From contig CBDBCY010000004.1 of assembly GCA_965203555.1 (NCBI GenBank), forward strand, positions 352,001-416,000: DNA of 64,000 nt, read 5' to 3'. This document shows positions 23,216-54,945 of this stretch, piece by piece. Made by a program: the position numbers and the translations under genes. The stretch's first letter is position 1. Each line of letters opens with the position of its first letter. The stretch is from Acidimicrobiia bacterium (lineage in GTDB: Bacteria > Actinomycetota > Acidimicrobiia > Spongiisociales > ZC4RG35). The notes under the pieces were generated by a model, which was not told the DNA's origin, searched no databases, and worked only from the letters and a program-made list of their open reading frames with translations.

Positions 23216-23236
23216 CCGACGACAAGAGTAAAGAGT

Positions 23237-32748: not shown

Positions 32749-32752
32749 CCAG

Positions 32753-32825
32753 CGCCCTCGGCAGGATTCGAACCTGCGACCTACTGCTTAGGAGGCAGTT
32801 GCTCTATCCCCTGAGCTACAAGGGC
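32753..32825 (-). tRNA. tRNA-Arg(CCT)
   Basis: Minus strand GCCCTTGTAGCTCAGGGGATAGAGCAACTGC-CTCCTAA-GCAGTAGGTCGCAGGTTCGAATCCTGCCGAGGGCG. Confidence 0.97.
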
Positions 32826-32989
32826 GGGGTTGGCGCGTTTTTTGGCGCGTTATTCGTTGTGTTTGTCGTGGGGGGTTGCTTCTGTAGGGTAGTGGGGCGT
32901 CGGGCCGGGGTGGGGTGCTGGTTTTGGTGGGGAGGGGGTGGGTGACAGCCGGGTTTGTGTGGGTTGGGGCGTCTTTGCTTGGAGAGGGG

Positions 32990-34228
32990 CCGGGTTGGAA
33001 TTCCGTCCAGGGCGATTACTTCGGCGACTGCTTGTTTGGCTTTGGGGGTGGTGAAGGTGTGTTGCCCGAGGTTGACGGCTGCTGGTTTGTCTCCTTTGGT
33101 GCGTTGGACTTTGCTGATTGGGATGGCTCCGGTGTCTAGTGTGCGGTCGGCTAAATGAGCGGGGTGTCTGAGAACGACCGGAAGCCGGTTCTCACAGGGG
33201 CTACCCGCAGGGCGCCGCCTACCCGATTGTTTGGCAGACATACCACTAGGAACCGGTCGATGTCGGTGGCGTGCAGGGCCATGTCGTAGACGACCGCCGC
33301 GGAGGCCTTTCCGTAGTTGGGGGTGTCGGTTTAGTAGGCCGAGGACCATGTCGCAGAAGACGGTGGCGTCGCTTTTGCCTGGGGGTTTGAAAGCCGTGCG
33401 TAGGATGATTCGTTCGTTGCGGTAGGGACCGCGTACGCTGGCTAGGACCAGTTGTTGGCCGTAGGCACCCCGAGCGACCGTTCCGGTGGGAGTGTGGTAG
33501 GGAACCGCGTCGGGGTCGAACCGGCGGACCTTCCCGGTTTTCGGGTTGATGATTTGTCGTGAACCGGTCTTGTAAATGGACGGTATCCAGGTGCCGTCAC
33601 CCACAATGAACTGTGTAGTGTCGGGATGGTTGACAGATCCCGTTTCGGCGGATAGCAGGCCCATATGTAAGGTTGCGTCTACTTCTATGCGCTCCACGAT
33701 CAGGTCGAGTTCTTCGAGGATTTCTCCGTGAAGGTACCGTTCTCGGAAACGGTGATGCTGGGATCTGCTGATCGGTTTGTTCGAAAGTCTCCGATGGGGA
33801 TGCCGCGGCCAGGCTTGTGCGACAGTGTCTTGGAGGCGTTGCCAGGTTTTGGGGTCAGAGAAGGTCCTGGCGATGTCTCGACCATTGCCCCGCAGCCCGG
33901 CTGTCACCTCGAACAGCACCGCTTCGAACACTTTGTGTTCCCGCGGGCGGCCGGGTCCACGTGATTTCTCTGTGTCTTTTTCGAGGGCTTCGGCGTACTC
34001 CCACAACAGCCCGAGGCAGGCGTGTGCTTCGATGAGTTCGATGTGGGACAGGTCCAGTGGCTCGCCGTGGACGTTGTGGCTGCCCCCGCTGGACGAACCA
34101 GCCGTGTCCGATGGCCCATCACGGCGTTCCTCTGTTGTGTAGTCGTCTAGGGATGCTTTCACTTCGGAGGCGGGCACCGGTTCGACACCGGAGAAGAACA
34201 CCGACCGGCGGGGTTTCTCATCGGCCAT
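32990..34228 (-). pseudogene. DDE-type transposase-like protein; frameshifted, MITE-interrupted, apparently C-terminally truncated
   Basis: GRPR motif, IVGDGTW (candidate first Asp), RFDPDA, YGQQLV, out-of-frame VVYDMAL (candidate second Asp); degenerates into CA-rich end sequence after LDGIPT. Confidence 0.62.
33140..33245. mobile_element. 106-bp MITE-like insertion with CTAG duplication
   Basis: CTAG at 33136-33139 and 33246-33249; removal restores DIDRFLDTGAIPISKV; weak inverted ends TG....GTC.GC.AAA. Confidence 0.75.
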
Positions 34229-35105
34229 CGTTTCTCCAGTTGTGACCGAGCGCCGCGGCGGTGTTGTCCAACGACGGGGAACCCAAGAACCGTGCCGCGG
34301 TTTCGATCCCATGGGTGTCCAACAATCCGCGGGCGGTGGTTAGCCGGATTGACCGGGCCGACACTCTTTCACGGTCGGACAGTCCCGCGTCGCGGATCAC
34401 ATCCCGAAGGCGCACGGTCACTGAATGCGCGGCCCGTTCCGGTCTGACCCGGCTGGTTACACAAATCAGATGATCCGCGGGGATGGGAGGGCGGTTACGG
34501 ACGAACCGTGCGACTCTGGAAACCCCCCACTCGTCGAGAGGGTTCACCCGCCAAGACGACCCTTCGAAAACGACAGTCGCCGTTTGGAGGTTCACGTCTC
34601 CCATGCGTACCGCGGCGACTTCGGTGGCGGTTCCCCCCGCGAACGAGAACACCACCAGCAACGACCGTCGGGATCCCACCAGCCCAGCGTCCGCATATTC
34701 TCTCACACGGTTTGCCTCTTCGGGGGTCAGCGGACGCGCGGTCGGGGCGCCTCCCAAACGGAGAATGCGCTCCCCGACCAACGCCTCGGTGTCTACCGGT
34801 GCTCCCAGGTCGGAGAACACGTCGAACATAGCTGACGCGATCCACTGGCGGTTCCGAGCGGTGGACTGTGCCGTGCGACGATACTGTCCTTGCCTGTCGA
34901 CGCGGGACACCCAGCACCAATGCGACACCATTTCCGCGGTCACGTCCGACCACTTGTCAACGCCCCGCCCCTGCAAATAGGTCAGCAGCCTCCGAGCGTC
35001 GGCCACGACCTTGTCGGCAGTGCGTGGGTTGGAGGCGTATCGTTGACAAAGCCCTTCCAACACCAGCGGCACCCAACGAGGCAGACAGTCCCGGTCGTTG
35101 CTCAT
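34218..35105 (-). CDS. Tyrosine-recombinase-fold protein with degenerate catalytic residues
   Basis: SAM-like N-domain, RPLTPEE, GGTATEVAAVRMGDV (cf. GxRxxE), SARSIRLT (cf. HxLRH), FLGSPSLDNTAAAL (cf. LGHxxxxxTxxY); overlaps the transposase start by 11 bp. Confidence 0.72.
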   Translation of the reverse strand: MSNDRDCLPRWVPLVLEGLCQRYASNPRTADKVVADARRLLTYLQGRGVDKWSDVTAEMVSHWCWVSRVDRQGQYRRTAQSTARNRQWIASAMFDVFSDLGAPVDTEALVGERILRLGGAPTARPLTPEEANRVREYADAGLVGSRRSLLVVFSFAGGTATEVAAVRMGDVNLQTATVVFEGSSWRVNPLDEWGVSRVARFVRNRPPIPADHLICVTSRVRPERAAHSVTVRLRDVIRDAGLSDRERVSARSIRLTTARGLLDTHGIETAARFLGSPSLDNTAAALGHNWRNDGR

Positions 35106-35457
35106 CGCAAGACTCACGCTTTCCAGCAGGATCCGCATCCACGGTTGCAACACCGCGGTGTCATTGAACAACCTCAGTTGCCGTCCGCAGACGGTGAACG
35201 CGGATCGAGTCCCAAGCCGGCGCAGGTGCTCATGTCCGAAGAGCGAACTAGAGATTTCCTGGGATGCCAAAAACGTGTGGCGATAGTGGAGGTGTCCAAA
35301 TGGGAACATTTCGATGTTCCCGGTCAGTCCTCACCGCTCCCAACAGCTTCTGTCTCCCGGCAACCGATTCACGGGAGGAGCAGATCGAGATCATAATATC
35401 GTCCATTACGGAAGACATTAGAAAGGGGTAGTGACAGGACGACTACCCTTCACCCCA

Positions 35458-35759
35458 ATGTCCAACCCTCGACAAAACCAGCCGCGTTTCTCGCGAAAAA
35501 AACTTGTTTTCCCGAGGGGCCGTTCAGGTCTGCAACCCCGCCGGAGGTCTATTTAGCTGCTGGGTTGGCCACCCGACTCAAAACCAAAATCGGGAACGAA
35601 TCCATACGATACGTTGCAAAAAAAGCCCAGCTCAGCCCTCAAACAGTCCTCAACATTCTCAACGGCACGACCTGGCCCGACCTACGCACCATCGCCAAAC
35701 TAGAAGTCGCTTTGAACACCCGACTATGGGGATACGAACACCGCAAAACCCGCCGCTAA
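35458..35759 (+). CDS. XRE-family HTH regulator, divergent from the recombinase-like gene (1-nt frameshift near the 5' end)
   Basis: SIRYVAKKAQLSPQTVLNILNGTTWPDLRTIAKLE HTH; ATG 35458 joins it with one extra base near the A7 run at 35496-35502. Confidence 0.75.
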
Positions 35760-36320
35760 ACCCACCAACTGAAGCGCCAGCATTTGGACAGCGCCCTTCC
35801 GAGATGGACCGAACCTGCGAGGAAAAGCCGAACGGGTCGTGGCGCCCTTCTGGGACCCTCTGAGACAACTCGGACAACCGGTTCCCCCGGGTCGGGTCCA
35901 TTCCACTAGTTTGACACCCGAGGGGGGTGTCCAACCACGGGGATGCCGGACTGGGTGACCGCCCCCCTCTTTTGCAGGTCGAGAATGTAGGCAACACAAG
36001 GATTTCATGGGGGGACATGAACGAAGGGCTGATGAGCGGGGAGCGCTCGACGCGATCTGCGGCGTGGAAGACGTGATCGGCTGCGAGGCAAACCACCAAC
36101 ACCAACTAAAGTGCCTCGCCACCTGACTCTGCGGGGACATCTCCGGGTCGTCAGCCGGTGAGGGTCACCCCCTTTTGTTCCACGCTTGATTCCTACCTGC
36201 TTGCGCGGTCTTTGTCGATAGGAGACATCACGGCGGGACCGTAAGTCGGGGGTGTGACCGGGGAGGCGGACCCGCCTGGCTATCAACACCAGTAGACGGC
36301 TCACTGACCTTCCCCTCCTG

Positions 36321-36441
36321 CCGTAATCCGTAACGCGTAACAGTCCTTGAATATCCAGAAAAACATAACCCTACGCGGGGAAACGACCAGCAAACAGCCC
36401 GGAGTTCCGTTACAAACCGCTCGGTTGACGTTTCCGTTACA
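36321..36441. repeat. Cluster of short CCGTAAC / TTCCGTTACA motifs
   Basis: CCGTAAT-CCGTAAC-GCGTAAC at 36321-36341; TTCCGTTACA at 36405 and 36432. Confidence 0.55.
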
Positions 36442-36972
36442 CTTCCAAGCCGCCCCAGGCAACCTCCCTGCCGAGTCGGACCCCCCGAGAAGCCAGCACC
36501 GGCCCTTAGCTCCAGAGCATCTTTCTACGTGAAGTCATGCAGATCATGTGATTGTGTGTCGGGCATTCCAGTGCTCAAATCGTTCGTGGGAAGGGCCAGC
36601 CTTAATTTTAGGACAAGTGGGCTGATCCGGCCACGGAACCACCGGCATGGGATGGCCTGTTGGCTCCACGCCTGACCTCGGAATCTAGGCAGGGTTCCGA
36701 AGGTAACCAACATCCAAACTTGGAAGTCTCCACATGGCTTGCAGCCGCTGCCTACGACCCATATCTGCCGTAACGGATGTGTCCTGGGTACCGGAATGTA
36801 ACGTGTCGGATCGCGCCCTTCTGGATTATGCTATGGCCCCGGTGGGAGTCCTACCTACAAGGCGACACCAGTGGCGCCACGAAACGAGGGAGCGGTCAAC
36901 GATCTGGAGGAAAGGACAAAACCTGGTTGAAGTTACGGTTTCACATGAACTCCACGTCCAGAAGGGGGAAGA

Positions 36973-37248
36973 GTGACGACCATCGAGTCGGAGAGGGCCG
37001 TTGTCCCCCCTGAACAGGGAAACCTGGTTCGTGTCCGAGACCGGTTTTGGGTCGTCGAGTCTGTACAGCAATCGACTAACCGGTTAGATGTGACCAGTTC
37101 GAATGGGTGGAATCGCCATCACCTGGTGCGCCTGGTTCCCATCGACAACAAAGGAAGCCCCTCGCCGCTGAGCATCTTTTGGGAGACAGAACCAGGTACC
37201 GAAATCCGACCCCAGTCCGAGTTGCCCGATCCCAGCCAGAGTGTTGAC
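36973..37248 (+). pseudogene. N-terminal fragment of a DISARM DrmD-like SNF2 helicase
   Basis: PEQGNLVRVRDRFWVV..HLVRL..IFWETEPG..LPDP resembles DrmD N-termini; cut exactly at a transposon-end copy. Confidence 0.65.
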
Positions 37249-37295
37249 GGGGTTGGCGCGAAACTGTGTGGGTTTGGGATTTTATGGTAGTGGGG
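37249..37295. repeat. Transposon-end copy 2 (47 bp)
   Basis: GGGGTTGGCGCGAAACTGTGTGGGTTTGGGATTTTATGGTAGTGGGG, 46/47 identical to 55654-55700. Confidence 0.9.
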
Positions 37296-37567
37296 TGGTG
37301 AAGGGAGATCCCGCACCGTCTCGCCGGGAACACGGAGGAGGAACGGATAGTGTTCCATGTGGGCATTGCCCGCTCCCGGAGAGAAACGGTGGTGGCGGCG
37401 GAGACCGGGAACGAGTCGCCTTTCATCTCGGAGGCGCTGGGAAAGAGCAACCTTGAGTCAGCGCTTCCCGACCCGGGTGCCACGGCAACAACTCGGGAGA
37501 TATCGCAGTGGTCATAGCACACGGTTGGAGAATGCGGGCTGGATCTGATCTTCAAGTCGCTCGTGCG

Positions 37568-37596
37568 GCGCTGGGATGCTCAGAGCATCCCAGCGC
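37568..37596. repeat. Perfect palindrome with 14-bp arms
   Basis: GCGCTGGGATGCTC-A-GAGCATCCCAGCGC. Confidence 0.85.
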
Positions 37597-37770
37597 AGAC
37601 CCGACTGGGTACATCAAATTGCAGGGGGTTCGCATCTGTGGGGTACCATCTGGTCGACAACACCCCGGCAGGGATAGAGAGGCATTACGGATCTGATAGC
37701 AGAACTCGGTACCTCGCGTTCTTTCGATCTGTGGGCAGGGTCTGACGGTTCGGAAACGGTCGGTCAGGTC

Positions 37771-40700
37771 GTGGAGAGAATAAGATCGGAAGCCCGCGAC
37801 ACAGCAGAACTGGGTCGATGGTTCTCGAACCTTGTCAGGGTTGTGTTGGTGGACCTCCCCGAGTACGAAATGGAGGAGGTGCATCATTGGGCGGACTGGC
37901 CCGAACGCGAGGCGCTTACCGGTCGCCCTCCATCCGATTGGGGTATTGATCTGGTGGGGCGTCGCACCGATGGCAGTTTCGTCGCCATACAGTGCAAGTG
38001 CTATGACCAGTCCCGCAAGGTCGGGAAGCCGGACACCAACTCGTTTCTGGCCAATTCGCAGTTACCGGTGTTCACGAAACGGTGGATTGTTACCACCAGC
38101 GACTGGACCAAACCAGCAGCTCGGGAAATCGACGGGATGCATCCGCCGGTCGGGCGCATCAACTTTCTCCGGCACTGGGACCATCCGGTGCCAGGCGAGG
38201 CTGCGGAACGGCCCACACAAGCTCTGTACCCGCGGCAAGAGGAAGCTGTCAACAAAGTAGTGGAAGGGTTCGCCCGTCACGACCGGGGCCGTTTGGTGAT
38301 GGCGTGCGGCACCGGGAAAACGTTCACTTCGTTGCGGATAGCCGAACAGATCGTACCGGATGGGGGACGCATCCTGTTCTTGGCGCCGAGCATTTCTCTG
38401 GTGTCCCAGTCAAGGCGGGACTGGTTGACTCACACCCGACGGCGCCTGTCATCCCTGGTGGTCTGTTCGGACACCACAGCTGGAGGCAAGCAGGAAGGGG
38501 ACATGCGCGTTTCTCATCTGGCGTGCGACGTGACCACCAGCCCCGAGGTGATTGCGTCCAAGCTGGACACTTCTGACACGTCCGTCCTTTTTTGCACATA
38601 CCAATCTCTTCCGGTGATTACCGCAGCGCAGGGAGAACACGACGCGCCCCGGTTTGATCTGGTTGTGTGCGACGAGGCTCATCGAACAGCCGGTGCTTTC
38701 AAGGCCGACCCGAGGGTCTTTCAGAGGATCCACTACGAGGAACATTTGAAAGCCGCCAAGCGCCTGTATATGACCGCTACTCCTCGGGTGTACACACCGG
38801 CGTCCAAGTCGTCCTTGGCGGCGAGGAACATAAGCGTTGTGGACATGACCGACCACTCGGTTTACGGACCGCAGTTTGACCGGTTGACGTTCAGAGAGGC
38901 TGTCGAGTTGGACATTCTGAGCGACTACCGGGTGATCGTTCTGCGAGTGCGGGAATCAGCGCTATGGCCCAGCATCCGAGCCGCGTTGGTGTCCCTCGCT
39001 GGCGATTCCGCTCTGAACAGCGGCGGCAAACCCCTCACTGTGACCACCGAAGATCTACAGAGAGTGCTCGGTGCCTCCCTAGCCGTGAACGGGATGGCGG
39101 AGGGTGTCGGTCCCGACGTGCCTGAACGGCTGAACCGAAGCATCGCGTTCGCCAATTCCATTGCAAGGTCCAAGTTCTACGCCAAGGCGTTGGACCATCC
39201 TCTGCTCAAACGGTTCGTGACTCGGAGGCGAAGGCAACGAAGCGCCGGAGCGGAGGCAGCATTGAAAACCGAAGTTCAACATCTCGACGCGAGAAACTCG
39301 TCGTATCAGCGGTTCCAGGCATTAGAGAAACTGCGCAGCGCGGGGGCGGATGGCGCCGCTCGCATCCTGACGAACGTGAAACTGTTCACCGAGGGCGTTG
39401 ACGTGCCGTCGCTCGACGCGGTTGTGTTCATGGAACCCCGCAAGAGCCACATTGACATCGTTCAGGCTGTTGGGCGTGTGATGCGCAAAGCAGAAGGCAA
39501 ACACCTCGGCTACATCATCGTTCCCATCGCGGCCAGCAGCGAAGACTCCCTCAATGAGGTGCTGACCGCTCACCACTCCGAATACCGTGTCGTGGGACAG
39601 GTACTTGCAGCTTTGCAATCCCACGACGAACAACTAATGGAGTCGGTCGCCCAGTATGTGACGATGATTGATGTGGACCGGCAACCTACCTCTGCAAATG
39701 GTGGTGAAACCACCAATGTCACCGACGACGACTGGATCGAAGAGACGCTGCCTCTGACCATCAAGGAAATAGGGGATGTTCTGCGTCCGGTCGTGATAGC
39801 AGCGTCGGGCCTAGGACGCCCCGGCAAACTGGTCACTGACCTGATCGCGGCAGCTGTCCGGGCTGCGGCGTCCGTGCTCGACGAAGCCCGACGGGATGCT
39901 GTGACAGGTGACTTCATCCCACAGTTGTCGGATGCCCTGGGTGTACCGATCGATGACGCTAAGTCGTTGGACACCTGCAAAATGGCCGCGTTGCTGATCG
40001 GGAACGCCTGCCTGCTTCACAAGCGGCTGCGTACCGTGGGACAGTGGTGGGATGTTCTGCCGGACATGTCAACCGTCGCGGTGTCTTCCGATCCCCTTGA
40101 CACCTTGAGAACCGCGTGGAAAACCATCCTGGACAAGGACTATGAACCGGTGTTCGACCCGGCTCTGACGGTGCTCGAATGCCTGCCCGGGTCACAGGCG
40201 GCGGTACAGCACAGCATCAGGATGCTCGCTGAATGCGCCGACAACACAGCTGACACGCTCAGCGAACTCGGCTACGACCACGCCGGACCCCTGTATCACA
40301 ATCTCATGCCTGATTCGCAGGCCAGGGGCGCCTACTACACCAACAACCTCTCCGCTTTGATGCTCGCCCGCCTGGCCATCGGACCGGACTTCGCGGACTG
40401 GCACAACCCAGACAGCATCAGCCGACTGAGGATCATGGACCCCGCATGCGGCACCGGCACCCTGCTCATGGCTTCCCTGAAAACGATCAAAGACAGGGTA
40501 GCCGAAGCAGGGAACACCGCAGACAGCGGTACCGCCTTGCATAAGACCCTGGTCGAGCAAGTGCTATACGGTCTCGACATCAACCAGGTCGGCATACAAC
40601 TGGCCGCTTCCAACTTCACACTGGGAGCACCGACCGTTGACTATCAGCGCATGAACCTGTACACGATGAAACACGGACCCCAACCGGACGGCACGGTCAA

Positions 40701-42216
40701 AGCGGGCACACTCGAGATGCTCACCTACGCCGACGAACATTCCCTGCAAAGCCTCGTCCGACCGACCGGCCCGCGGTCGGGGGTAGACGGCGATCATGTG
40801 GGCGGCGGTGACAGCACCTTCCCCCACAAAGACCTCGATCTGGTCATTATCAACCCACCGTACACACCCAAACATGTTCGCAACCAGCAGTTCACCGACG
40901 ACGTGAAAGATGCGATGCAAGACCACGAACTGCGAATCAGAGACACAGTCGTAGCAACAAATGCCAGCCTGCGAGATGTTGTCGACCCCAACAGCATTCG
41001 CACGTTCTTCACTCCTGTGGTGGAACGCTTAGTCCGAGACACCCAATCCTCACCACCAGAGAACGCGTATCTGGAAGAACACTCCACCGATCCCAGAAGC
41101 AACATCGGGCCGTCACAGCCCACTTTGGCCAAGGTACTTTCGGCTGCAGCCTGCCTAAATGCAGATGGCGTCAGTGAACGCAGGTTCCTGGCGCGGTCTT
41201 TCCACATCGAGCGGATAATCACCTCACACGACCCCAAGCGGGTCAACTTTTCCGAGAACACGAACGTGCATGAGTGTCTGCTGATCGCACGCCGCGCCAA
41301 TCACCCCCCCCCCCACACACACAAGCCGACCGAGTTCGTATCTCTCCGCAAGATGCCCTCCACACCTGAAGAAGCCATAGCAGCAGCAGACCAAGTCTCG
41401 GCGGGTGAACCTTCTTCGTGGGGATCGAGGACACTGTGGCCAGCTGACCGAGTGCAAGATGGCGACTGGGCGCCCGTGCAATGGTACAACTTCGATCTGG
41501 GTAGAGTTGCCCGGCGACTCGGACAGCACGGTGCCCTCGAAGCTGTCGGACAAAGACACTTCGTAGGGCCCACCGGCGAGAACATCGAAAGCACCACCCG
41601 CAGAGTCAGCGAAGACATCCCACCAGATGCCAGACGATGCTTTACATCCATAGCGGTTCGCCACCATCAGACCATGGGTGCCACCCCAGATGCCTGGGTA
41701 GCCGCCAAGCCGGGCAAACAAAACACATTCGACTACTACTGGAACCAGAAGAGCAATGTGCTGGTTGCCAAGCGGTACAGAACAACCTCCAGCCTGCTAT
41801 TGGCCGTGTGGAGTGACACGCCTTCGATAGGTAGAGGCAACGGATGGATGCCCGTAGGCGTTAACGACCAAGCAATGGGCAAGGGGCTGGTTGCGTGGTG
41901 GAACTCGACCCCCGCGACGATGATCCTGCTGAACCGCCGCTCAAAGATGCTGACTTACGTGAAGTGGTCCGTGGGACAGATGCGCTCCATCGGGATTCCT
42001 AAACCAGACAATCCCTCCTGGTCGGCTCTGACCTCGGCGTACGAAGAAGCCAAGAACACACCGATGCTTCCCCTCAAGCAGGGCACCGCCTGCGAAGCCC
42101 GATCAATCATCGACCAAGCAGCTGCTCTCGCGCTCGGTATAGACGGCGAACAAGTGGCCGAGTGGCGACACATGCTCACCGAGGAACCCACGATCTCTAA
42201 CCGTCCAGCCAACTAG
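37771..42216 (+). CDS. Single-polypeptide restriction-modification enzyme, type ISP-like (Mrr-type nuclease, SF2 helicase, N6-adenine MTase, specificity region)
   Basis: GIDLV..AIQCK, MACGTGKT, CDEAHR, TATP, QAVGRVMRK, DPACGTGT, INPPY. Confidence 0.9.
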   Translation: MERIRSEARDTAELGRWFSNLVRVVLVDLPEYEMEEVHHWADWPEREALTGRPPSDWGIDLVGRRTDGSFVAIQCKCYDQSRKVGKPDTNSFLANSQLPVFTKRWIVTTSDWTKPAAREIDGMHPPVGRINFLRHWDHPVPGEAAERPTQALYPRQEEAVNKVVEGFARHDRGRLVMACGTGKTFTSLRIAEQIVPDGGRILFLAPSISLVSQSRRDWLTHTRRRLSSLVVCSDTTAGGKQEGDMRVSHLACDVTTSPEVIASKLDTSDTSVLFCTYQSLPVITAAQGEHDAPRFDLVVCDEAHRTAGAFKADPRVFQRIHYEEHLKAAKRLYMTATPRVYTPASKSSLAARNISVVDMTDHSVYGPQFDRLTFREAVELDILSDYRVIVLRVRESALWPSIRAALVSLAGDSALNSGGKPLTVTTEDLQRVLGASLAVNGMAEGVGPDVPERLNRSIAFANSIARSKFYAKALDHPLLKRFVTRRRRQRSAGAEAALKTEVQHLDARNSSYQRFQALEKLRSAGADGAARILTNVKLFTEGVDVPSLDAVVFMEPRKSHIDIVQAVGRVMRKAEGKHLGYIIVPIAASSEDSLNEVLTAHHSEYRVVGQVLAALQSHDEQLMESVAQYVTMIDVDRQPTSANGGETTNVTDDDWIEETLPLTIKEIGDVLRPVVIAASGLGRPGKLVTDLIAAAVRAAASVLDEARRDAVTGDFIPQLSDALGVPIDDAKSLDTCKMAALLIGNACLLHKRLRTVGQWWDVLPDMSTVAVSSDPLDTLRTAWKTILDKDYEPVFDPALTVLECLPGSQAAVQHSIRMLAECADNTADTLSELGYDHAGPLYHNLMPDSQARGAYYTNNLSALMLARLAIGPDFADWHNPDSISRLRIMDPACGTGTLLMASLKTIKDRVAEAGNTADSGTALHKTLVEQVLYGLDINQVGIQLAASNFTLGAPTVDYQRMNLYTMKHGPQPDGTVKAGTLEMLTYADEHSLQSLVRPTGPRSGVDGDHVGGGDSTFPHKDLDLVIINPPYTPKHVRNQQFTDDVKDAMQDHELRIRDTVVATNASLRDVVDPNSIRTFFTPVVERLVRDTQSSPPENAYLEEHSTDPRSNIGPSQPTLAKVLSAAACLNADGVSERRFLARSFHIERIITSHDPKRVNFSENTNVHECLLIARRANHPPPHTHKPTEFVSLRKMPSTPEEAIAAADQVSAGEPSSWGSRTLWPADRVQDGDWAPVQWYNFDLGRVARRLGQHGALEAVGQRHFVGPTGENIESTTRRVSEDIPPDARRCFTSIAVRHHQTMGATPDAWVAAKPGKQNTFDYYWNQKSNVLVAKRYRTTSSLLLAVWSDTPSIGRGNGWMPVGVNDQAMGKGLVAWWNSTPATMILLNRRSKMLTYVKWSVGQMRSIGIPKPDNPSWSALTSAYEEAKNTPMLPLKQGTACEARSIIDQAAALALGIDGEQVAEWRHMLTEEPTISNRPAN

Positions 42217-42521
42217 CCGCTGGGTGTGCCGATGCGCTGGCGCGTAGACACATAAGCGCAGGTCACAAGTTCCCTTGCGGAGGCCTTTAAGCTGGGGCAA
42301 GGAAGGTGCAGCGCCTGTGGAGCATCACAATCCGATCCGAAAGGCCGTTAGGCGGTGCCGAGGTAGCGAAACTCGGCCCCCGAATCGGGATGTATCCGCC
42401 CTAATCTTGGGCGGCCTGGTCAAGGAGTTGTCTGTTATTGACTCCCGCGATGGACGGAAGGAGGGTTGGGTGGATCCGGCACTAATCACGGCATCAGAAC
42501 CGGTCACAGAAAGAGGGGTGC

Positions 42522-43527
42522 ATGAACTTCGATGCTGACCTGAGAGACATCATCGAGTCCTATTTCGCCTCCGAGGGTATCCGGTACGAAAGCAGCGACG
42601 AACTAAGCCGCTTGGCGGTCCACTACTCTGAAATGCGGATTAGAAGAATCCCTGCGGTGCCCCGCACAGTGCATTTCTCCAATGAAATACATTCCTCTTT
42701 GGGTGAACTGGCCCGAGAAACGGACAGCGCCAAGGCAGCTAAGACTTCAGAGGCCTGGGGAACGGTCTTTTATCTTCACCAACTGTTTGTGGAAGGGGAA
42801 TCTGTGATCCCTCATCTGAGCAGACGGGTTGAGAATGCTGCAACGCAGGACCCGCTCTTGTGGGACTGGGCCCTTCATCATCTCCACCTCAGACGACATC
42901 CCGAGGACTCGGGTTTCGTCAAACGATCCGATTACTTGCTGTTTGCCATCGTCACCGGCACCGAGGCGTTCTTTGTAGATGTGAGACCCCACACCGATCC
43001 CGAGAAATTGTTGTGGTACAGACAGGACCTGATGCGGATTGTGCATTCGAACTGGCCAGAGTTGATCAAACCAAATGTCCTTCACGGTGTGACAGGTGAC
43101 GAATTGACGGACCAGCAAAGAAAGGTGCTGCGAGAGAAGAACACGAATTCCGTCATGGAATTGGGAGGGAAGGCCGTTGGCGCTCGGAGGGGGACTGATG
43201 CGTGACGGCAGCAGCCTACGGTGCAGGTGGTGGGTGATGCGGCTGCGGTGGGAACTGAAACAACATGCAGATCATCTCAACGCCAACGCCGCCGCGGTGA
43301 GGAAGGCACTGAAAGAGAAAGGGATAGACACCAGTGGAGGCCCGGACTTGAAGCTCGCGCTACTGGACGACCTGAACCCCCCATCGGACCTTGTCCAGTC
43401 CCTGCAGGAAGACAACGGTTTGAGCAAAGACTTGTCCCGTATGGGGTTTGTGATCGTCGAAGCTACCACGCTAACGCCCATAGCGGTCAGCATCGAAACG
43501 TCAAGCCCTTCGACCACGGCACTGTGA
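42522..43527 (+). pseudogene. Hypothetical protein split by one frameshift near 43180
   Basis: Overlapping ORFs 42522-43205 (DWALHHLHL..GFVKRSDYLLF) and 43177-43527 read as one protein; RBS-like AGAGGGG before ATG. Confidence 0.6.
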
Positions 43528-43534
43528 TTTGTGT

Positions 43535-45099
43535 ATGAACCATAGGGGAGAACGGTATCTGACGGTCCGCCAGTTCATCAGGCACGCTTCCCGTCTCAAG
43601 GTCCGTCTCACCAATGGTGAGCTTGAGTTTTATGAAGAGTTTTGTCTGTTGTTGCCGGTTGCCCGCACCCGCATGCCTACTGAGTATGCTGTTGCCCTGG
43701 AGCGAGAGCCAAGGCGCCGTCCGTTCAGCAGTTCCGAAGGCCTCGACCCACCAGAACTGTGGGCGCGGCTCGCCCCCGGTTTCCGGGACGGAATGCATGT
43801 CTTTGACCAGGAACGAGACAACCCGTTCCTAGAAATCCCGGTTTGTGCGACCTTTCGCCCATGGCACACCGACACAGTTCCCGTGTCGCTCTCCGACGGG
43901 AACAGAGGTACGGACAAGGACCGTTGAGCGGTATTACGCCGCATGGCAGGTGCACATTGTCGAAATTCTCCGCCGCGGCGGCTACTACCAGCGTGCCCCG
44001 TTCCTCAGCGCACGGCCCGAATCTCATCTTCTTCGGAAGAGGTACCAACTGCCCGAGAACACGAAAAGCATCCGGTCTCTCAACGGGACGGCGATCGGCT
44101 ACGACGCTCTGACACTGTTCGGCGTTGCCCGCAGGATCGCCCGACGGGAGGCCTACTTTGCCGTCTCCGGTTGAGCAAAGTGCGTCTAAGACGGCGGGTC
44201 GGGAACTGGGCGACCTCTTGAAGCGTCGAGCACAGCGGGCTGTGAGAGTCTCCGGGGTTGACGAACCGGCCTTATACAACTTTGTAGACAAGCTCACCCG
44301 AATGATCGAGGACTACGGGGCAAGGAGAGGTTTGCGTTGGCTGAAGACGCAGAACAGGACCTTTGGGAAACCAGTCAGTTCGCCTACTACGCATACGACC
44401 ACGACTGGGACAGATTCTTGGCCGCCGCCGAAACCCACGTAGGACAACACCTGGTAGACAGGCTCCGACGGCTCGATCCCGTAGAAGCAACCAAACTCGA
44501 AGCAATGGAGAACCTCGAAAGCATCCTCCAGGACGGAAGCATCGACGTAGACGCCGATGACCATTCGAACACCCTCGAGAAATCGTCGAGTTCTGCCTGA
44601 CACATGATCTCTTCGAAGTCCTCACCGGCATTCAAAACTATTCCTACTCCTTATCCGACCAGCGACGGGACGGCTATCCCGGGTTCCCCTACCGCATGCT
44701 CCGTCCTCTTGCTCTCGCAGTGGAACAACTCGTTCGGGGGATCTTGAACGCCGCCGACAAACCCTATCACGGAAGGGCCTTACCGCGTTGATCAAGATCA
44801 TCGGAGCAGACTCTACATGGCTCCGACACTTCAATTGCCTCTCCAACAAGCGCAAAACATGGGACACCCACGGAGATCTGCATGCGAAGGCCCTAGCCGT
44901 TGCCCGTTCAATCCAAACACTGAGCGTCAAAGATGACGAGACAATCGCAAGAACACTGGTATGTGCCGTCCATACCCGGAACCTCGTGTCCCACAGGCAC
45001 AAGTTCCTCCCCACAGAAGTAACTCTGACCCTCGGAGGAACATGCGCCAAAGCGATAGTTCTTCTATGGCTCCTAGCCAAAGGAAAAGGGTTGGTCTGA
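43535..45099 (+). pseudogene. Multiply frameshifted gene with C-terminal HEPN-like RxxxxH motif
   Basis: Chain of overlapping plus-strand ORF pieces ending in VHTRNLVSHRH. Confidence 0.5.
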
Positions 45100-45279
45100 T
45101 TGACCACGGTTGGCTCATGACTGGCCAACTCTTCGCCACCATACATGTACAACCCTCAGGGAAGGCGGCTACTTATCCGGCCCTGCGCGTTTTTTGGGAT
45201 TGGTGGTCTGGCTGCTGGGTGGTGGGATTCATGTTAGGAGGAGTGCTCGGGCGGCGTAGTTATGAGGGTTGGTGAAGCC

Positions 45280-45600
45280 GTGGGCGGTACGTCGGAGGGA
45301 GTGGAGGGGGTTCGTCGGGTGGTGAGGGTGATCTGGTGGTGGTTGGCGGTCAGTTCCACCCGGCGGATGCGGTTGAGCATCCTCAATGCCCGGGCGGCGA
45401 GGTGCTGCTGTTTCAGGTCGGGATCCCGCACATCGGCCGCGGTGAGAGCGCGGATGGTGAGTGATTCCACGAAAGCAGCGTAAACCCTCAAACGTTCCGG
45501 CAAGACCGCGGTGTTGGACAGAACCTTGGACTTTCCATGTCGCCGAAGCAACTCCTCCGCTTTTGGGTGACAAAGCAGCCAGAACCGCTTAGATTTGATC
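45280..45600 (-). pseudogene. IS1634-like transposase remnant
   Basis: RFWLLCHPKAEE and PERLRVYAAF..ARALRMLNRIRRVEL resemble IS1634-family segments; GT-rich flank. Confidence 0.45.
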
Positions 45601-46047
45601 CCGCCCCCCGGGGTGGCCGGTGACAATGTTCCGTCGGCAGTGTCCCCCACCGACCACCGACCACCAGCCCCGAGATGAAAGAAGGGTCCGCTAATGCTGC
45701 CGCCGGCCGTTGCGGTAGCCGGATTCGGGACAGTCAGGCCTCTGCGAAGCCGCTGCCACTCCAAGGAACGGTACCCAGGAGTCACACGCGATGAGCACGA
45801 ACGCGTCATTCCCTATCTTGGATTGAAAGCCTGTCGTTACGGCGGTCAGCTAGCCCAGCATGAGGCCCTTTCCGACTGGGAAGTCCAGTGAAAGCCAACG
45901 CTCCTGCCTAATCGCGTTGTGGTACGATAATCCGGCGGGCTGGGGGCATTTTCCCCGCTTGGGACAGTTGAGGCGCCCTGGTCAGGCTCATGGTTCGGAG
46001 GCAGCCTTGTCTGCAATACTCACCAATGCTCAGAGGAGGACACCAAA

Positions 46048-47970
46048 ATGAGGCTCTCGTCGTTTCAGGTAGGTCCGTACCGGAACGTGCTGGATTCCGA
46101 CCCTGTCGATGTCCACCCGGAGGTAACCGTGTTGGTTGGCAAGAACGAGTCGGGCAAGACCAACCTACTGCACGCCCTTCACGCTCTAAAACCGGCCAAC
46201 GGCGAACGTGCTTTCCCCCGACTCGACTATCCCCGCTGGCTGCAGAAAGCCCACGAACGCAGCGGCGAGTACAAGAAAGCCAAGCCGATACAGGTCGTTT
46301 TCGATCTCACAGATGAAGATGTCCAAGCGGCCACCGACAGGTTCGGCGAGAACGTCCTGACCGCGAAGACGGTTTCTGGTTATCGCACCTACGAATCCGA
46401 GGAATTTGTCTTTTGCCCGCCCGCTTGTGACGTAACCACCGCACTAAAGCGCCTTTACAGGAACCTCTCCGTGCCGTTTCTGGAGGGGGCCTCCGACATC
46501 GGACGCCTTCGGGAGCAGCTGCAGAGCACCGCCCAAGAAAGGGGTCAGGACGGCCAAACCAATCATGCTGTCACCGCAGGCGAGGTGCTCAAACGTTTGG
46601 AAGCCGCCTACAGCGGTTTCGATTCCGTCTCCGAAGCAATCTGCGCTTTCCTTTCGGAACGTGTCCCTCGGTTCTTCTACTTCGATAGATACGCTGAGTT
46701 GCCGGGAACCACCGACACCGGGCCGCTTGTTCAGCATCTCCAGTCAACGGAACTCACGGGATCCTCAGAACTAAATTCTCGGCAGCGGACCGCTCTCGGC
46801 CTTCTCCGTATGGGGTTAGCCGACGATGAGATAATCGCCGACGAATACGACGCTCGCCAGGCCGAGTTGCAGGCCGTGAGCGCCGAACTCACCCGGAAAG
46901 TGCTGGACTACTGGAAGCAAAACCAGCACCTCCGTTTGACGATCAACATCAACCCCGTCGTTGACAGTAGCCATTATCCGAGCATCCTGCGGCGCGAATT
47001 GAAGCTTGATGTGATGGATGACCGGCATTATTTCACCAACAGTCTCGATGCTCGGTCCAACGGCTTCCGGTGGTTCGTTTCGTTCATAGCAGCCTTCGCC
47101 GAGTTCGAGGAGGACTCGAACGTGATCGTTCTCCTGGACGAACCCGGATTGAATCTCCACGCCCGCGCCCAGGCGGACTTCCTCCGATTCGTCAACGAAC
47201 AATTGGCTGCCAGTCACCAGGTCGTGTTCACGACCCACTCGCCGTTCATGGTTGACCCCGCAAGGCTTGACCGCGTACGCGTGGTCGAGGACACCGGCCC
47301 TGACATCGGAGCCAAGGTCGCCACGACGGACAACGCATCGAAAGACCGCGACACCCTCTTCCCGCTCCAAGCCGCCCTCGGATACGATATCGCCCAGAAC
47401 CTGTTCGTAGGCCCGGACAACCTTGTGGTTGAGGGACTCTCCGACTTCACCTACCTGACGACCCTCTCCAACCACCTCGCCTCCGTGGATCGAACCCACT
47501 TGGACGAACGGTGGAGAATCCTCCCCGCGGGAGGCGCCACCAACATCCCCACCTTTGTTGCACTGGTCGGACCGTCGCTCGATGTCACCGTCCTAGTTGA
47601 CGGCGCCGATGCTTCAAGCCAGAAGATCCGCAACCTTATGGAGAAGGGACTGCTCGACGACAAGCGCCTGCTGACCCCTAACGCCGGAACGCCCACTAAA
47701 GACGCCGACATCGAGGACCTGTTCACCGACGAGGACTATCTGAGGATATACAATCCCGCCTTAAATACCGCCTTGAAGATCTCGGACATCTCAGGTATCG
47801 ACCGGCTGACCAAGCGCATCGAAAGGGCAGCGGGAAAGTTTGGACACAACAAGCCGTCCACCTATCTACTGCACAACCGGGACAAGATCCTTCCCAAACT
47901 GTCAGAAACCACCTTGGAGCGTTTTGAGAAGATGATCGTGGCAATCAACAAGACACTGACGGCTGACTAG
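46048..47970 (+). CDS. OLD-family ATP-dependent nuclease (ABC ATPase + TOPRIM)
   Basis: GKNESGKT, SNGFRWF, LLDEPG, TTHSP, TOPRIM VVEGLSD, DIEDLF; RBS GAGGAGG. Confidence 0.88.
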   Translation: MRLSSFQVGPYRNVLDSDPVDVHPEVTVLVGKNESGKTNLLHALHALKPANGERAFPRLDYPRWLQKAHERSGEYKKAKPIQVVFDLTDEDVQAATDRFGENVLTAKTVSGYRTYESEEFVFCPPACDVTTALKRLYRNLSVPFLEGASDIGRLREQLQSTAQERGQDGQTNHAVTAGEVLKRLEAAYSGFDSVSEAICAFLSERVPRFFYFDRYAELPGTTDTGPLVQHLQSTELTGSSELNSRQRTALGLLRMGLADDEIIADEYDARQAELQAVSAELTRKVLDYWKQNQHLRLTININPVVDSSHYPSILRRELKLDVMDDRHYFTNSLDARSNGFRWFVSFIAAFAEFEEDSNVIVLLDEPGLNLHARAQADFLRFVNEQLAASHQVVFTTHSPFMVDPARLDRVRVVEDTGPDIGAKVATTDNASKDRDTLFPLQAALGYDIAQNLFVGPDNLVVEGLSDFTYLTTLSNHLASVDRTHLDERWRILPAGGATNIPTFVALVGPSLDVTVLVDGADASSQKIRNLMEKGLLDDKRLLTPNAGTPTKDADIEDLFTDEDYLRIYNPALNTALKISDISGIDRLTKRIERAAGKFGHNKPSTYLLHNRDKILPKLSETTLERFEKMIVAINKTLTAD

Positions 47971-48367
47971 CACGCCGACTCTTTGGGCTGTGGCAGGCTA
48001 CCCCCTTCGCTGATGGGGAGCAGAGTCAATAGACCGCTCACCCGCACCCGGGGCGGTGGTCATTTGAGGGGAGCGGACGAAGCGGCATGCGGTTGCCAAC
48101 AACAACCGCGCCCCATACCGAACGTGTCAGCCACCTGCCTGGTGCCCGGCCGGACTTGGTCGCACGGGGCCTCGTGTGGTAAGTGTTGACTGGACATGCC
48201 CTCTGACCTGGTGAAACACCAAATTGTTCGCTAAATTTGGGGGCTACCATCCCAGCTGTATGTTGACCACCGGCGGGGAGGATCACTGCCTTTTAGGCCA
48301 GGTGCTGACCCGTGGGTAAGCTATTTGCCCCAGCCTCTCTCGCAACGCCCTGGGTAAGGAGATCGTC

Positions 48368-49219
48368 ATACAACTGAAGCCTCCTTTCTCAGTTCGCAAC
48401 GACCCCGAAAGGCTCGAAGACTTCTTTGTCTTGAAAGAAGGGCTGCCATCCTGGGTACAGCAACCAATGTGGCGGTTTTTTCGTCATTGCTTTTTTGCGC
48501 CACCCCCATACCCGGGGAACCTCAACCCGCCACTCATGGAACTCCTAGAAGGACACACTGAGCGCGAATTGCCTCGCGATGAAGCAGCACTGAGACGCTT
48601 GTTCTTCGGTAACAGCGACCTATTTCTCGACGCTGTGGACTTCGGCTTGCGAGTGGTATCGGGGAAAAGAGATCATATGGAGGCCGTAGGAGATTTGGCT
48701 TTCCATCTTAATCACGCTAGGAGTGTCTACACGATCGGGAACGACGACGGGAATGACGAAATCCAGTACCGACAACCCCTCGAGATGACCCGATTAGTGG
48801 AAGAAGCGACAAGTGGCCGAGATCGGTCCGCGCTCCACATACAAGAGGCTTGGTCGAACGCTTTCAAGCTCGATGCCAACCTCAACGCGGCTGGAGCGGC
48901 GGCAGTGAAAGCAGTCGAAGTTGCCACCAAACCTGTCATCATCCCCAACAACGACAAGGCCACCTTAGGTCAGATCATCAGGGCGATGAAAGACAAACCC
49001 GCGAAGTGGGAGACCGACTCCGAGGCGGATAGAAGCCTCGAGACCGTTACGGATATGATGGACCAGATTTGGAAGGGCCATTACAGGCATGGCGACGAGA
49101 CGAAGCCGTTCGCGGCGTCCGCCGCCGGAACGGAGATGATTGTACACCTTGCTGTGGTGGTAACGCATTGGTTCAATTCGGGAAAGATCCGAAACGTCTC
49201 ACCAAGGGCCGAAGACTAA
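48368..49219 (+). CDS. Hypothetical helical protein, possibly Abi/HEPN-like
   Basis: AVKAVE..P..PNNDKATLGQII..W..YRHG pattern; RBS AAGGAG precedes in-frame ATA 48368, first canonical start TTG 48431. Confidence 0.55.
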   Translation: MQLKPPFSVRNDPERLEDFFVLKEGLPSWVQQPMWRFFRHCFFAPPPYPGNLNPPLMELLEGHTERELPRDEAALRRLFFGNSDLFLDAVDFGLRVVSGKRDHMEAVGDLAFHLNHARSVYTIGNDDGNDEIQYRQPLEMTRLVEEATSGRDRSALHIQEAWSNAFKLDANLNAAGAAAVKAVEVATKPVIIPNNDKATLGQIIRAMKDKPAKWETDSEADRSLETVTDMMDQIWKGHYRHGDETKPFAASAAGTEMIVHLAVVVTHWFNSGKIRNVSPRAED

Positions 49220-49321
49220 GGAGACATGCTGCTCAGTTGTGCGGGAGGGTACAAACTGCACTACAAGCCGACAGTAGCTTGTGTCCCCACCTGCAACCTA
49301 GTCTCCAGTTGTTGGCGTTGG

Positions 49322-49378
49322 TGATGACGATCATCGAAAATCCTCAGGAGTCGATCATCGAAAGTGCTCACCCTGGGG
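49322..49378. mobile_element. Orphan IS21-family terminal repeat
   Basis: TGATGACGATCATCGAAAA..GAGTCGATCATCGAAAGTGCTCACCCTGGG closely matches the IS21 end at 58146. Confidence 0.8.
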
Positions 49379-49593
49379 GTGATGAGCGCCTTCGCTGAAC
49401 ACCACGGGTGGTAAAACCGACCAAAGTTGTCGTGAACAAAGAACTCCCACTCCGGCCCAGAACATCAGAGCCCTCCTATTCCCACGAGAGCTACATTGAC
49501 TTGGTCAAGGTAGACTGTCGGTCGGCCATCCTTTCCGCCATCGTCGGTGTCTCCCCTATCGCTCTGTTTACGGTGCCCGCCTGTGTTTGAGTG

Positions 49594-51147: not shown

Positions 51148-51373
51148 ATGCTAAAGCGACCCTTCGGTTCTCTGATACGCACCCGCACAACAGCTCCTTT
51201 GACGGTTGGGGGACCTCCGAACCTGGCTCGCTCCCCTCGGACCGTTTCCCGCTGAATCCTATCACCGGAAGAAGCGAGGCACAATATCCCAAACACATCG
51301 CACGGATTCAGTCTTCAATCGCCCCTCCCGTAGACGGGAGGCGGGAAGGACTTGAATCCACCGATCAGGCGGT

Positions 51374-51607
51374 ATGGGTGAGAAGTGGCGGTATCTTGAG
51401 AACTCCGTAAGCGTAAGAGAGGCAGTCGAGCCCGGCCTGCGCCACTATAGAGTCGGCGAGCTGGAAAAGGCAGCCGGAGTGTTCATCGATGAGGATGCGA
51501 TGGCTGGGCTCGAAGGAAAGCTCGTCCCAAGAGCTCACGCGGCATGGACTACGGAATTCGGAGGGGGATCATGTGGTGACGGACTTTCGGAAGAACATGC
51601 ACTTTGA
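51374..51607 (+). CDS. Small hypothetical protein
   Basis: 77-aa ORF after AGGCGG; no recognisable motif. Confidence 0.35.
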   Translation: MGEKWRYLENSVSVREAVEPGLRHYRVGELEKAAGVFIDEDAMAGLEGKLVPRAHAAWTTEFGGGSCGDGLSEEHAL

Positions 51608-51809
51608 GTTAGAGTCCGGCAGCGCGTTTGTGTGGCCGAATTAACGGAAGGTCGTCTGTGATGCAGCCCCAACAGCGTAATAGGAACGAAAGGTAGTGGT
51701 GAGCGGGTCAGTCGTGCAACAATTGGTGTCCTTTGGCGGGTAGCCGTGTCGCTGGACAACACCAAGACGACATTGCTCGTTTGGCTACCGATATGAGAAC
51801 ATGGCGGAA

Positions 51810-51990
51810 CCTCAACCATGTCGAGTAAGCCACCTTGGAGTAGGTGGACTGGTTTAACCATCGGTGGCTCCTCGAATCCATCGGACACATCCCACCAGCA
51901 GAGAAGGAGGCCAACTACCATCAACAGCACACCCCAGCACCCCTACCTGGTGTCAAGCAAAACACGCTTCGGTAAGCCTGGGGCGGTTCA
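51810..51990 (+). mobile_element. IS3-family 3' remnant with right inverted repeat
   Basis: VE*ATLE*VDWFNHRWLLESIGHIPPAEKEANY and terminal CCTGGGGCGGTTCA. Confidence 0.85.
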
Positions 51991-52015
51991 GTTCAATGAC
52001 TGATCGGAGACTCCA

Positions 52016-52832: not shown

Positions 52833-52889
52833 ACGGGGAAAACGTCCTGGGTCCTCACGGATAGCTAATCTTCGAGAGTGTATCGCCCC

Positions 52890-53120: not shown

Positions 53121-53195
53121 TAGTCAGGTGTTTCTGCCGGTAATGTCAGGTGCTGGAAGTCAGTTCGGGGAAACCTTGGGGGTCGTGGTCGGGTC

Positions 53196-54833: not shown

Positions 54834-54945
54834 CATTTTCTAGTGGTCGGTTGATCTACTAGGGGAGTGGAGCCTATGATCCGGCTAGTGGGGACTGCCG
54901 ATCTCGTTCCATCAGGTCGCCTGGGACGCCGCTGTGAGTGCTGGC

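Follow-up and report, generated by a model that had tools for sequence, protein, structure and literature searches.

The locus described here raises the question of what a tyrosine-recombinase-like protein that lacks a working active site contributes to a mobile element that also encodes a DDE (Asp-Asp-Glu) transposase. The gene in question lies on the − strand at 34218..35309 of a 64,000-nucleotide stretch of an Acidimicrobiia genome (contig CBDBCY010000004.1 of assembly GCA_965203555.1, forward-strand positions 352,001 to 416,000), which is referred to as the window; coordinates are window positions unless a locus handle (L002 and the like) is given. The gene was found to be part of a 22,820-bp transposon (32826..55645, − strand), with its right end (RE) at 32826 and its left end (LE) at 55645, that sits immediately upstream of a tRNA-Arg(CCT) gene. 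The element belongs to a family of site-specific transposons, mainly from Acidimicrobiia, that is previously undescribed. The element ends, the 8-bp target duplication, and the rule by which tRNA genes serve as targets are new here. The literature search, which did not extend to ISfinder, to journals behind a subscription, or to the supplementary files of PMC10293859, gave no description of this transposon family.

A tyrosine-recombinase fold without its active site

An intact open reading frame (ORF) of 295 aa runs on the − strand from an ATG at 35105 to 34218, and the frame is open further upstream to an ATG at 35309 (363 aa). Since the N-terminal QLRLF motif that is conserved in homologues is encoded in frame at 35180-35166, beyond the ATG at 35105, the gene probably starts upstream of that codon. 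The dead tyrosine-recombinase-like gene is therefore given as 34218..35309, the longest ORF, with a conserved core at 34218-35105.

The nature of the product was deduced from a profile and a structural model. Pfam and NCBIfam gave zero matches to the window protein even at E≤1, a cutoff at which the Phage_integrase model of Pfam was also not matched, and two of its homologues had no Pfam match at E≤0.1. A word-based homology search returned 240 relatives; no precomputed Pfam domain was attached to any of them, and the names seen were all "hypothetical protein." An alignment of 37 homologues (A1) was used both for a profile and for an AlphaFold2 (AF2) model. Against PDB sequences, the profile matched the archaeal recombinase XerA (5hxy) with an E value of 1.6e-4 across the catalytic domain and other Xer proteins more weakly. 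The AF2 model had a mean predicted local distance difference test score (pLDDT) of 92.6 and a predicted template modeling (TM) score of 0.74. Its top Foldseek matches in the PDB were tyrosine recombinases only: XerA at an E value of 3.7e-10, and Tn1549 Int, lambda Int, IntI, XerH, and Cre at TM scores of 0.58 to 0.67 over approximately 290 to 340 columns with a probability of 1.00. Both the core-binding domain and the catalytic-fold domain were present. It was concluded that the product of ORF 34218-35105 has a complete tyrosine-recombinase fold, in line with the integrase-like architecture noted in the initial annotation of this locus.

That annotation had also described the ORF as integrase-like with the first Arg, the His of HxxR, the His of LGH, and the Tyr nucleophile replaced. 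The peptides concerned (FAGGTATE, SARSIR, FLGSPSL, and LDNTAAAL) were all found in the translated ORF 34218-35105, and alignment with XerA bore out two of the replacements directly: Arg-I corresponds to T159 and His/Trp-III to S276. The Tyr nucleophile, which we presume to lie at its canonical spacing of 9 residues after His/Trp-III, corresponds to A285. The fourth, at His-II, is also real, the new residue being R251 (the HxxR motif reads RSIR) rather than the Ala that had been assigned. Lys-beta is replaced by S184. The sole catalytic residue retained by the window protein is R254, at Arg-II.

The same losses were found throughout the family. An exhaustive profile search gave 1,125 cluster representatives with the cutoff set at E≤1e-3, a number that fell to 605 at E≤1e-10 and to 125 at E≤1e-30, and 147 newly retrieved proteins from the best 150 were added to A1, resulting in 184 rows. 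The Tyr column contained 0 Tyr in the 184 rows and the Arg-I column a single Arg, while Arg-II was Arg in 142/184. R186 was Arg in all 175 rows with a residue in that column, and E162, R254, and W290 were also conserved across the family. The ratio of nonsynonymous to synonymous substitution rates (dN/dS; Nei-Gojobori method) was 0.22 to 0.30 for the recombinase-like gene in the 8 closest pairs (dS of 0.24 to 0.72) and 0.25 to 0.63 for the transposase gene in 7 pairs with dS below 0.8, the pairs being non-independent in both cases. Since the residue losses are family-wide and the dN/dS values of the recombinase-like gene are low, the loss of catalysis is old and has been maintained under purifying selection.

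The partner is a Tn5/IS4-like DDE transposase

An overlap of the recombinase-like gene with the start of a transposase gene had been noted at the outset. The overlap is real, amounting to 11 nt between the stop codon (34218-34220) and the ATG of the next ORF (34228), but the transposase gene proved to be a pseudogene in the window (33003..34228, − strand). This was established from three-frame translations and from blastn and mafft comparisons with the copy at L023, the closest intact transposase copy, which shares 82% DNA identity with that of the window. The lesions comprise a +1 frameshift (1-nt insertion) near 33295, an insertion of approximately 100 bp near 33149-33248, and a deletion of approximately 520 bp at 33003/32996 that has removed the C-terminal third of the protein, including the catalytic Glu. 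A 498-aa ORF at 32816-34312 is an artifact of read-through across these lesions. The genome of the window holds only this one copy of the recombinase-transposase unit. Because the transposase is broken and there is no second copy in the genome, the window copy of the element cannot transpose.

The enzyme family was assigned from intact homologues of 530 to 600 aa, approximately 560 aa being typical. In an alignment of 21 of these (A2), D227, D336, E490, R486, and K497 were invariant in 21/21. The proteins have the D-D-E triad, with an extended insertion that separates its second Asp from the Glu, together with the R(3)E(6)K motif, which is the IS4-type signature. The AF2 model of the transposase had a pLDDT of 85, with a helical N-terminal region of approximately 130 aa confidently modeled, and its five best Foldseek matches in the PDB were all Tn5 transposase (E values of 5.3e-7 to 1e-6), at low global TM scores of 0.28 to 0.39. 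None of the 21 members reached the curated threshold of Pfam DDE_Tnp_1 or of the NCBIfam insertion sequence (IS) families; subthreshold matches were obtained to DDE_Tnp_1 for 7/21 (best E value, 2.4e-4) and to IS1182 for 9/21 (best E value, 7.7e-5). The transposase profile produced chance matches only against PDB sequences (Cas2, E of 0.86; HDHD2, E of 2), and tblastn of an intact transposase against a plasmid collection produced no match. The invariant D-D-E residues and the Tn5-like fold identify the neighbor as a DDE enzyme of a non-Tn7 family.

The two genes are strictly linked

One genome per species was scanned, yielding 35 loci, nearly all of them in Acidimicrobiia metagenome-assembled genomes (MAGs). 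A transposase homologue was encoded directly downstream of the recombinase-like gene and on the same strand in 35/35 loci. In most of these both ORFs were intact and overlapped or abutted, while some loci held interrupted or frameshifted copies. Several chromosomes carried 2 to 3 copies (e.g., those of L002, L012, and L034). A small Xre-type helix-turn-helix (HTH) homologue was present upstream of the recombinase-like gene on the opposite strand in 19/35 loci; in the window, this gene lies at 35565..35759 (+ strand; Pfam HTH_3, E of 4.3e-8) and diverges from the operon of the recombinase-like and transposase genes. Among complete elements, the smallest are L021 (4.5 kb) and L022 (5.75 kb), which consist of the HTH gene, the recombinase-like gene, the transposase gene, and one unrelated ORF, and no AAA+ gene, TniQ, or TnsA/B/C was found in these two. 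The coupling to a transposase and, in these two smallest elements, the lack of an AAA+ gene agree with the initial proposal for this locus.

A complete recombinase-transposase-tRNA-Arg(CCT) unit (L028) was also observed on a 20-kb contig labeled as a Bifidobacterium breve MAG. Its presence in a Bifidobacterium bin, distant from the Acidimicrobiia in which the other loci occur, corresponds either to horizontal spread or to a binning error.

Ends and target duplication of the window element

The target gene, a tRNA-Arg(CCT) identified with ARAGORN, occupies 32752..32825 on the − strand. The RE of the element ends at 32826 and therefore abuts nt 1 of the tRNA at 32825. The genes for transposition are located near the RE and are oriented in the direction of the tRNA. 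The right-end region (32826..32895, − strand) contains two direct ACGCGCCA repeats 12 bp apart (32831-32849), a terminus reading ...AACCCC, and a conserved CTACCCT at 32892-32886; the paired repeats occur once in the 64 kb, where 0 are expected. The first eight nucleotides of the tRNA (32825-32818), GCCCTTGT, form the right copy of a target duplication. The left copy was found by searching for the first bases of the tRNA and lies at 55646..55653 (− strand), immediately beyond the LE.

The left-end region (55561..55645, − strand) has the terminus GGCGCTGGCGCGTAAA, which is inverted relative to the RE, followed by a CAGGTCA box at 55620-55614 and two direct NACGGT-type repeats at 55590-55583 and 55568-55561. 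Thirteen LEs, that of the window and 12 others, could be aligned and share the terminus, the CAGGTCA box, and two NACGG(T/A)T repeats. The LE differs from the RE in carrying a single copy of the repeat motif, and a search for the LE by way of the two repeats in inverted orientation found nothing.

The left duplication adjoins, at 55654..55715 (− strand), the remnant RE (…CTACCAT…AGTTTCGCGCCAACCCC) of another, older member of the family, and the order at the left junction on the − strand is the remnant RE of the other element, GCCCTTGT, and GGCGCTGGCGCGTAAA.... The position of this remnant beside the duplication points to a tandem array. The rest of the older element is unrecognizable beyond 55654-55715, and a 513-aa ORF at 55860-57401 has no Pfam match.

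The G+C content is 0.56 to 0.60 inside the element and 0.63 to 0.67 in the flank below 32.6 kb. The tRNA-Arg(CCT) gene and the genes downstream of it are syntenic in genomes of the same genus, and only the first 8 nt of the tRNA are duplicated between tandem elements, which rules out the tRNA as cargo of the element. The possibility that the pair is a conserved host operon was likewise ruled out. The hallmarks of a mobile element are present, namely, inverted termini, the 8-bp duplication, 2 to 3 copies per chromosome, and decayed copies; in addition, the cargo is variable and four different tRNAs are targeted.

Targets across the family

A tRNA gene on the same strand was found just downstream of the transposase in 24/35 loci, the RE abutting nt 1 in each, so that the association with tRNA genes suggested in the initial annotation holds with base-pair precision. 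The targets comprise 17 Arg(CCT), 4 Thr(TGT), 2 Thr(CGT), and 1 Ala(TGC). The gap from transposase to tRNA, measured in 21 cases, ranged from 89 to 346 bp, with most at 166 to 207. In these 24 loci, nt 1 of the tRNA is preceded by 2 to 3 direct TTCGCGCCA-type repeats spaced by 12 bp, the last bases being ...CCCC. The end motifs vary between clades together with the proteins. The window also contains a tRNA-Thr(TGT) gene (23142-23217, + strand) whose 5' side is free, a tRNA species that is targeted by a related clade elsewhere; it may be usable as a naive reference site. Since no RE-type repeats were found upstream of this unoccupied gene, the direct repeats are deduced to belong to the element.

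Where both ends of an element could be placed, the duplicated 8-mer matched the tRNA. The 8.4-kb element of L004 has GCCCTCGT and that of L022 has GCCCTTGT, each matching the tRNA hit, while that of L021 has GCCCGAGT, matching tRNA-Thr. Sorted by target, the 8-mer is GCCCTYGT for Arg and GCCCGAGT for Thr. In four loci without an adjoining tRNA (L007, L014, L020, and L034), the 8-mer comes directly after the RE and leads into the LE of a further element, and the same RE-8mer-LE arrangement was observed in L004, L021, L022, L050, L051, L052, L060, and L061; every LE junction found was preceded by another RE. The elements thus stack in tandem, each newcomer using the same 8 bp beside the tRNA. 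Since the upstream sequence at such repeat insertions was a resident element, we infer that the recognition determinants for site choice lie on the tRNA side.

Target choice was also compared with the phylogeny of 25 recombinase-like proteins, in which one of the four Thr(TGT) loci was left out. Targets proved to be specific to clades. The Thr(CGT) clade had a support of 100/100, three Thr(TGT) rows and one Ala(TGC) row fell into one clade with a support of 99/96, and the remaining rows were Arg(CCT). The target labels required 9 changes on the tree versus a shuffled mean of 12.4.

Some loci have other surroundings. L024 ends at a contig end. L015, L016, and L017 contain near-identical 5.3-kb blocks (about 4397-9689) that end exactly at the RE with no adjoining tRNA; in L015 and L016 the RE abuts a 47-nt hairpin (GAATTGGCAGC...GCTGCCAATTC). 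The flanks of these blocks are mosaic among the three genomes, and no clean transposition event is recoverable from them.

Within the genus of the window, the history of one site could be followed in more depth. RE repeats were located directly upstream of the syntenic tRNA-Arg(CCT) in 11/11 same-genus loci retrieved. Stretches of 20 kb or shorter upstream of the tRNA were taken from 14 same-genus genomes; 5/14 contained RE-8mer-LE junctions, and homology to the recombinase or the transposase was retained in 3/14 (L050, L052, and L058). Bounded elements of 3.3 to 16 kb with both ends and without transposition genes were found at L051 (3642-19900), L060 (16077-19900), and L061 (2607-5929), in coordinates oriented with the tRNA at the right. 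These look like non-autonomous or deletion derivatives. The tRNA-Arg(CCT) site thus is an old one with a history of repeated insertion, and most of what occupies it consists of tandem copies that have decayed or are non-autonomous.

The role of the dead recombinase

The pairing of the two proteins was examined by co-folding the transposase and the recombinase-like protein of L002, each with its own alignment, in three runs. The scores were 0.70, 0.64, and 0.67 (median, 0.67), compared to 0.00 for the best of three controls. In calibration, 58/80 solved complexes and 2/110 mismatched pairs reached the mark, figures that hold only approximately with custom alignments. The partner pLDDT was at least 83. 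In the best run, residues 16-20 and 368-406 of the transposase, the latter in the beta insertion domain, were placed against residues 136-144, 200-204, and 238-241 of the recombinase-like protein. The co-fold named in the initial annotation as a check thus passed its controls, and the model supports a predicted binding of the two proteins to each other. Taken together, the results bear out the initial interpretation in part.

We tentatively propose, at a confidence that falls slightly short of even, that the ORF encodes one of the two proteins of a transposition module, a non-catalytic DNA-binding subunit that acts as a target selector without an AAA+ adaptor. The dead recombinase would keep the full C-shaped DNA clamp formed by the core-binding and catalytic-fold domains, and with it would clamp the tRNA gene body sequence-specifically, recruit the transposase, and fix the insertion point. 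The Tn5/IS4-like DDE transposase, which would be co-translated, would perform the chemistry and insert the element with an 8-bp stagger exactly at nt 1 to 8 of the tRNA. The 8-bp duplication would then regenerate the tRNA 5' end, leaving the element immediately upstream of the tRNA.

Such an insertion has a consequence for the target, as the whole element separates the tRNA from its native promoter. A CTAsCCT-type motif (TAGCCT, TACCCT, or TAACCT) was present in 26/26 REs, at −63 to −67 from the tRNA in 14/26 and elsewhere within 100 nt in the others. The −10 consensus of Actinobacteria is TANNNT, which CTAsCCT fits. The motif may act as a −10 element directed outward or be bound by a protein, and we hypothesized that the RE supplies transcription for the displaced tRNA.

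Several observations weigh against this picture. A simple sigma-70 scan of the RE found 0 outward promoter-like sites. The three co-fold runs share "at least 0%" of contacts; that is, the interface is not reproducible between runs. The RE is followed by neither a tRNA nor the 8-mer in 6/35 loci (L008, L011, L015-L017, and L019), and therefore either the targeting is not absolute or these loci are rearranged. At column 288, 3 residues past the canonical Tyr position, Tyr is present in 51/184 rows. Since the two genes are always co-inherited, the comparative data cannot separate which of the proteins reads the tRNA gene. Finally, a TGGCGCG core that is inverted across the 8-bp spacer and the RE direct repeats spaced by 12 bp are plausible recombinase arm sites, and such arm-like termini favor a role at the ends instead.

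The principal rival follows from this last point. Here the dead recombinase would bind the element termini (the TGGCGCG arm and the direct repeats) and assemble or bridge the ends for the transposase, while the N-terminal helical domain of the transposase would read the tRNA. Inverted arms flank the 8-bp spacer at every RE-8mer-LE junction, a geometry resembling a recombinase core site; the REs at the 24 loci with an adjoining tRNA have the 2 to 3 direct repeats; the end motifs differ by clade along with the proteins; and a complex of the two proteins, as in the co-fold that passed its controls, fits this role as well. Against it, Tn5-type transposases normally bind their own ends, and the helical N-terminal region of the transposase could do so here, while the base-pair-precise reuse of the tRNA site would be left unexplained. 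We consider this assignment possible but somewhat unlikely. The two roles may also be combined, with the dead recombinase binding both the terminal arms and the tRNA gene around the 8-bp overlap and so preserving the geometry of a recombinase synapse, the DDE enzyme having taken over catalysis at exactly this 8-bp stagger, and the RE re-supplying tRNA transcription. This combination is deemed unlikely. If it were true, the family would document how, in a single element lineage, catalysis passed from a tyrosine recombinase to a DDE transposase, and it would constitute a minimal two-protein system that places at least 20 kb of cargo at tRNA 5' ends with base-pair precision and needs no AAA+ adaptor.

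It is also conceivable that the protein is a regulator or a dispensable relic of an ancestral integrase, serving as an inhibitor or an immunity factor or being idle. The survival of the gene beside a dead transposase in the window agrees with this, and the tandem arrays show no strong target immunity. Against it, the linkage is strict, holding in all 35 loci, purifying selection on the gene is at least as strong as on the transposase, the broad family keeps R186, R254, E162, and W290, and the gene overlap suggests translational coupling; this explanation was accordingly judged decidedly improbable. The opposite possibility, that the recombinase is still active with a non-canonical nucleophile and integrates at the 8-bp core while the DDE protein is secondary, was given hardly any weight. 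A duplicated 8 bp with inverted arms would fit a recombinase overlap region, and the Tyr residues at column 288 could be taken for the nucleophile. However, substitutions at Arg-I, Lys-beta, His-II, and His/Trp-III run through the whole family, and the D-D-E triad of the partner is invariant. Tyr at column 288 was rejected as a replacement nucleophile because the column is variable (also His in 65 and Trp in 13 of the 184 rows) and the window protein itself has His there.

Cargo and surroundings

The cargo of the window element lies between the HTH gene and the LE. One gene (37771..42216, + strand) encodes a 1,481-aa fusion that by Pfam comprises an Mrr-type nuclease, a ResIII/DEAD helicase, and an N6-adenine methyltransferase, and that looks like a Type ISP restriction-modification enzyme. 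A second gene (46048..47970, + strand) encodes a 640-aa AAA_15/AAA_21 (AbiEii/OLD-like) ATPase, also assigned with Pfam. Unannotated neighbors of the ATPase gene are located at 42522-45809, and together with it they may form a defense module inside the element. Further cargo comprises an SLH-domain protein and several ORFs without a family. The family in this way shows a route for the build-up of defense islands upstream of tRNA genes in Acidimicrobiia.

Beyond the element, an IS21-type pair is encoded on the − strand, consisting of IstB (58211-58996) and an IstA-like rve/Mu-C transposase (58993-60291). An ImuB-like (IMS) gene followed by a PHP/DNA_pol3_alpha gene occupies 61195-64000 (+ strand) and runs off the window; this segment looks like an imuB-dnaE2 mutagenesis cassette.

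Comparison with known systems

Targeted transposons are known mainly from the Tn7 world, in which a selector protein or a CRISPR effector acts via TniQ and the AAA+ protein TnsC. The present family appears to reach Tn7-like precision with a dead recombinase of approximately 300 aa and a Tn5-like transposase of approximately 560 aa, joined in 19/35 loci by a small HTH protein, and with cargo of more than 20 kb.

The closest precedent for the dead recombinase is TnsF of Tn6022-like Tn7 elements, a target selector that resembles a tyrosine recombinase but is inactivated (Faure et al. 2023, PMC10293859). TnsF is 498 aa long, carries zinc fingers at its N terminus followed by two core-binding (CB) domains and only part of a catalytic (CAT) domain, and acts through TniQ and TnsC with TnsA/B to direct insertion to one conserved host gene, comM (PMC10293859). 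More distant CB+CAT homologues without zinc fingers are mentioned in that article and were left out of the analysis there (PMC10293859, Figure S4E). The two proteins are alike in being transposon encoded, derived from tyrosine recombinases, and devoid of recombinase activity. The protein described here is set apart from TnsF by its length of 295 to 363 aa, its one CB domain, and its complete CAT-like fold; in its model, helix begins at residue 3, and zinc fingers are absent. The partner transposase is Tn5/IS4-like, the target is the tRNA 5' end, and the smallest elements have no TniQ or AAA+ protein, all in contrast to the TnsF pathway. If the dead recombinase is the selector, it would represent a second recruitment of the recombinase fold for targeting, possibly independent of TnsF, and the first such recruitment for the IS4/Tn5 superfamily; the pair would also be a compact candidate for site-specific insertion tools.

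In Tn7 itself, TnsD directs insertion at attTn7. The present elements resemble Tn7 in that insertion takes place at a set distance from a sequence recognized within a conserved essential gene, which stays intact, and in that the transposition genes cluster at the target-side end, with the cargo on the other side. They differ in that there are no TnsA/B/C/D homologues, the transposase is of a different superfamily, and the tandem arrays suggest that no Tn7-like target immunity operates.

Tn5-type transposases act alone and have little target specificity. The transposase described here resembles Tn5/IS4 enzymes (PDB 1muh and 1mm8, among others) in its fold, matched at an E value of about 5e-7, in the extended segment that separates the second Asp from the Glu, and in R(3)E(6)K. 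In contrast, it has an obligate partner gene, generates an 8-bp duplication, is confined to one class of target, and falls below the curated family thresholds.

An association between DDE elements and tyrosine recombinases has been reported for IS1202-family elements, which insert next to XerC/D sites (PMC10132070; bioRxiv 10.1101/2022.12.17.520857). What the two cases would have in common is that the place where a DDE element inserts depends on a site to which a tyrosine recombinase binds. They differ in that the recombinase there is the host's active XerC/D at dif/pdif, while here it is an inactive recombinase-like protein encoded by the element. The integrases of genomic islands and phages, for their part, are active tyrosine recombinases that use long identity segments at the tRNA 3' end. 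The present family shares with them the use of tRNA genes as conserved, safe landing sites and the regeneration of the tRNA sequence; it differs in that the identity is 8 bp and lies at the tRNA 5' end, the termini are inverted, and the transposase is a DDE enzyme.

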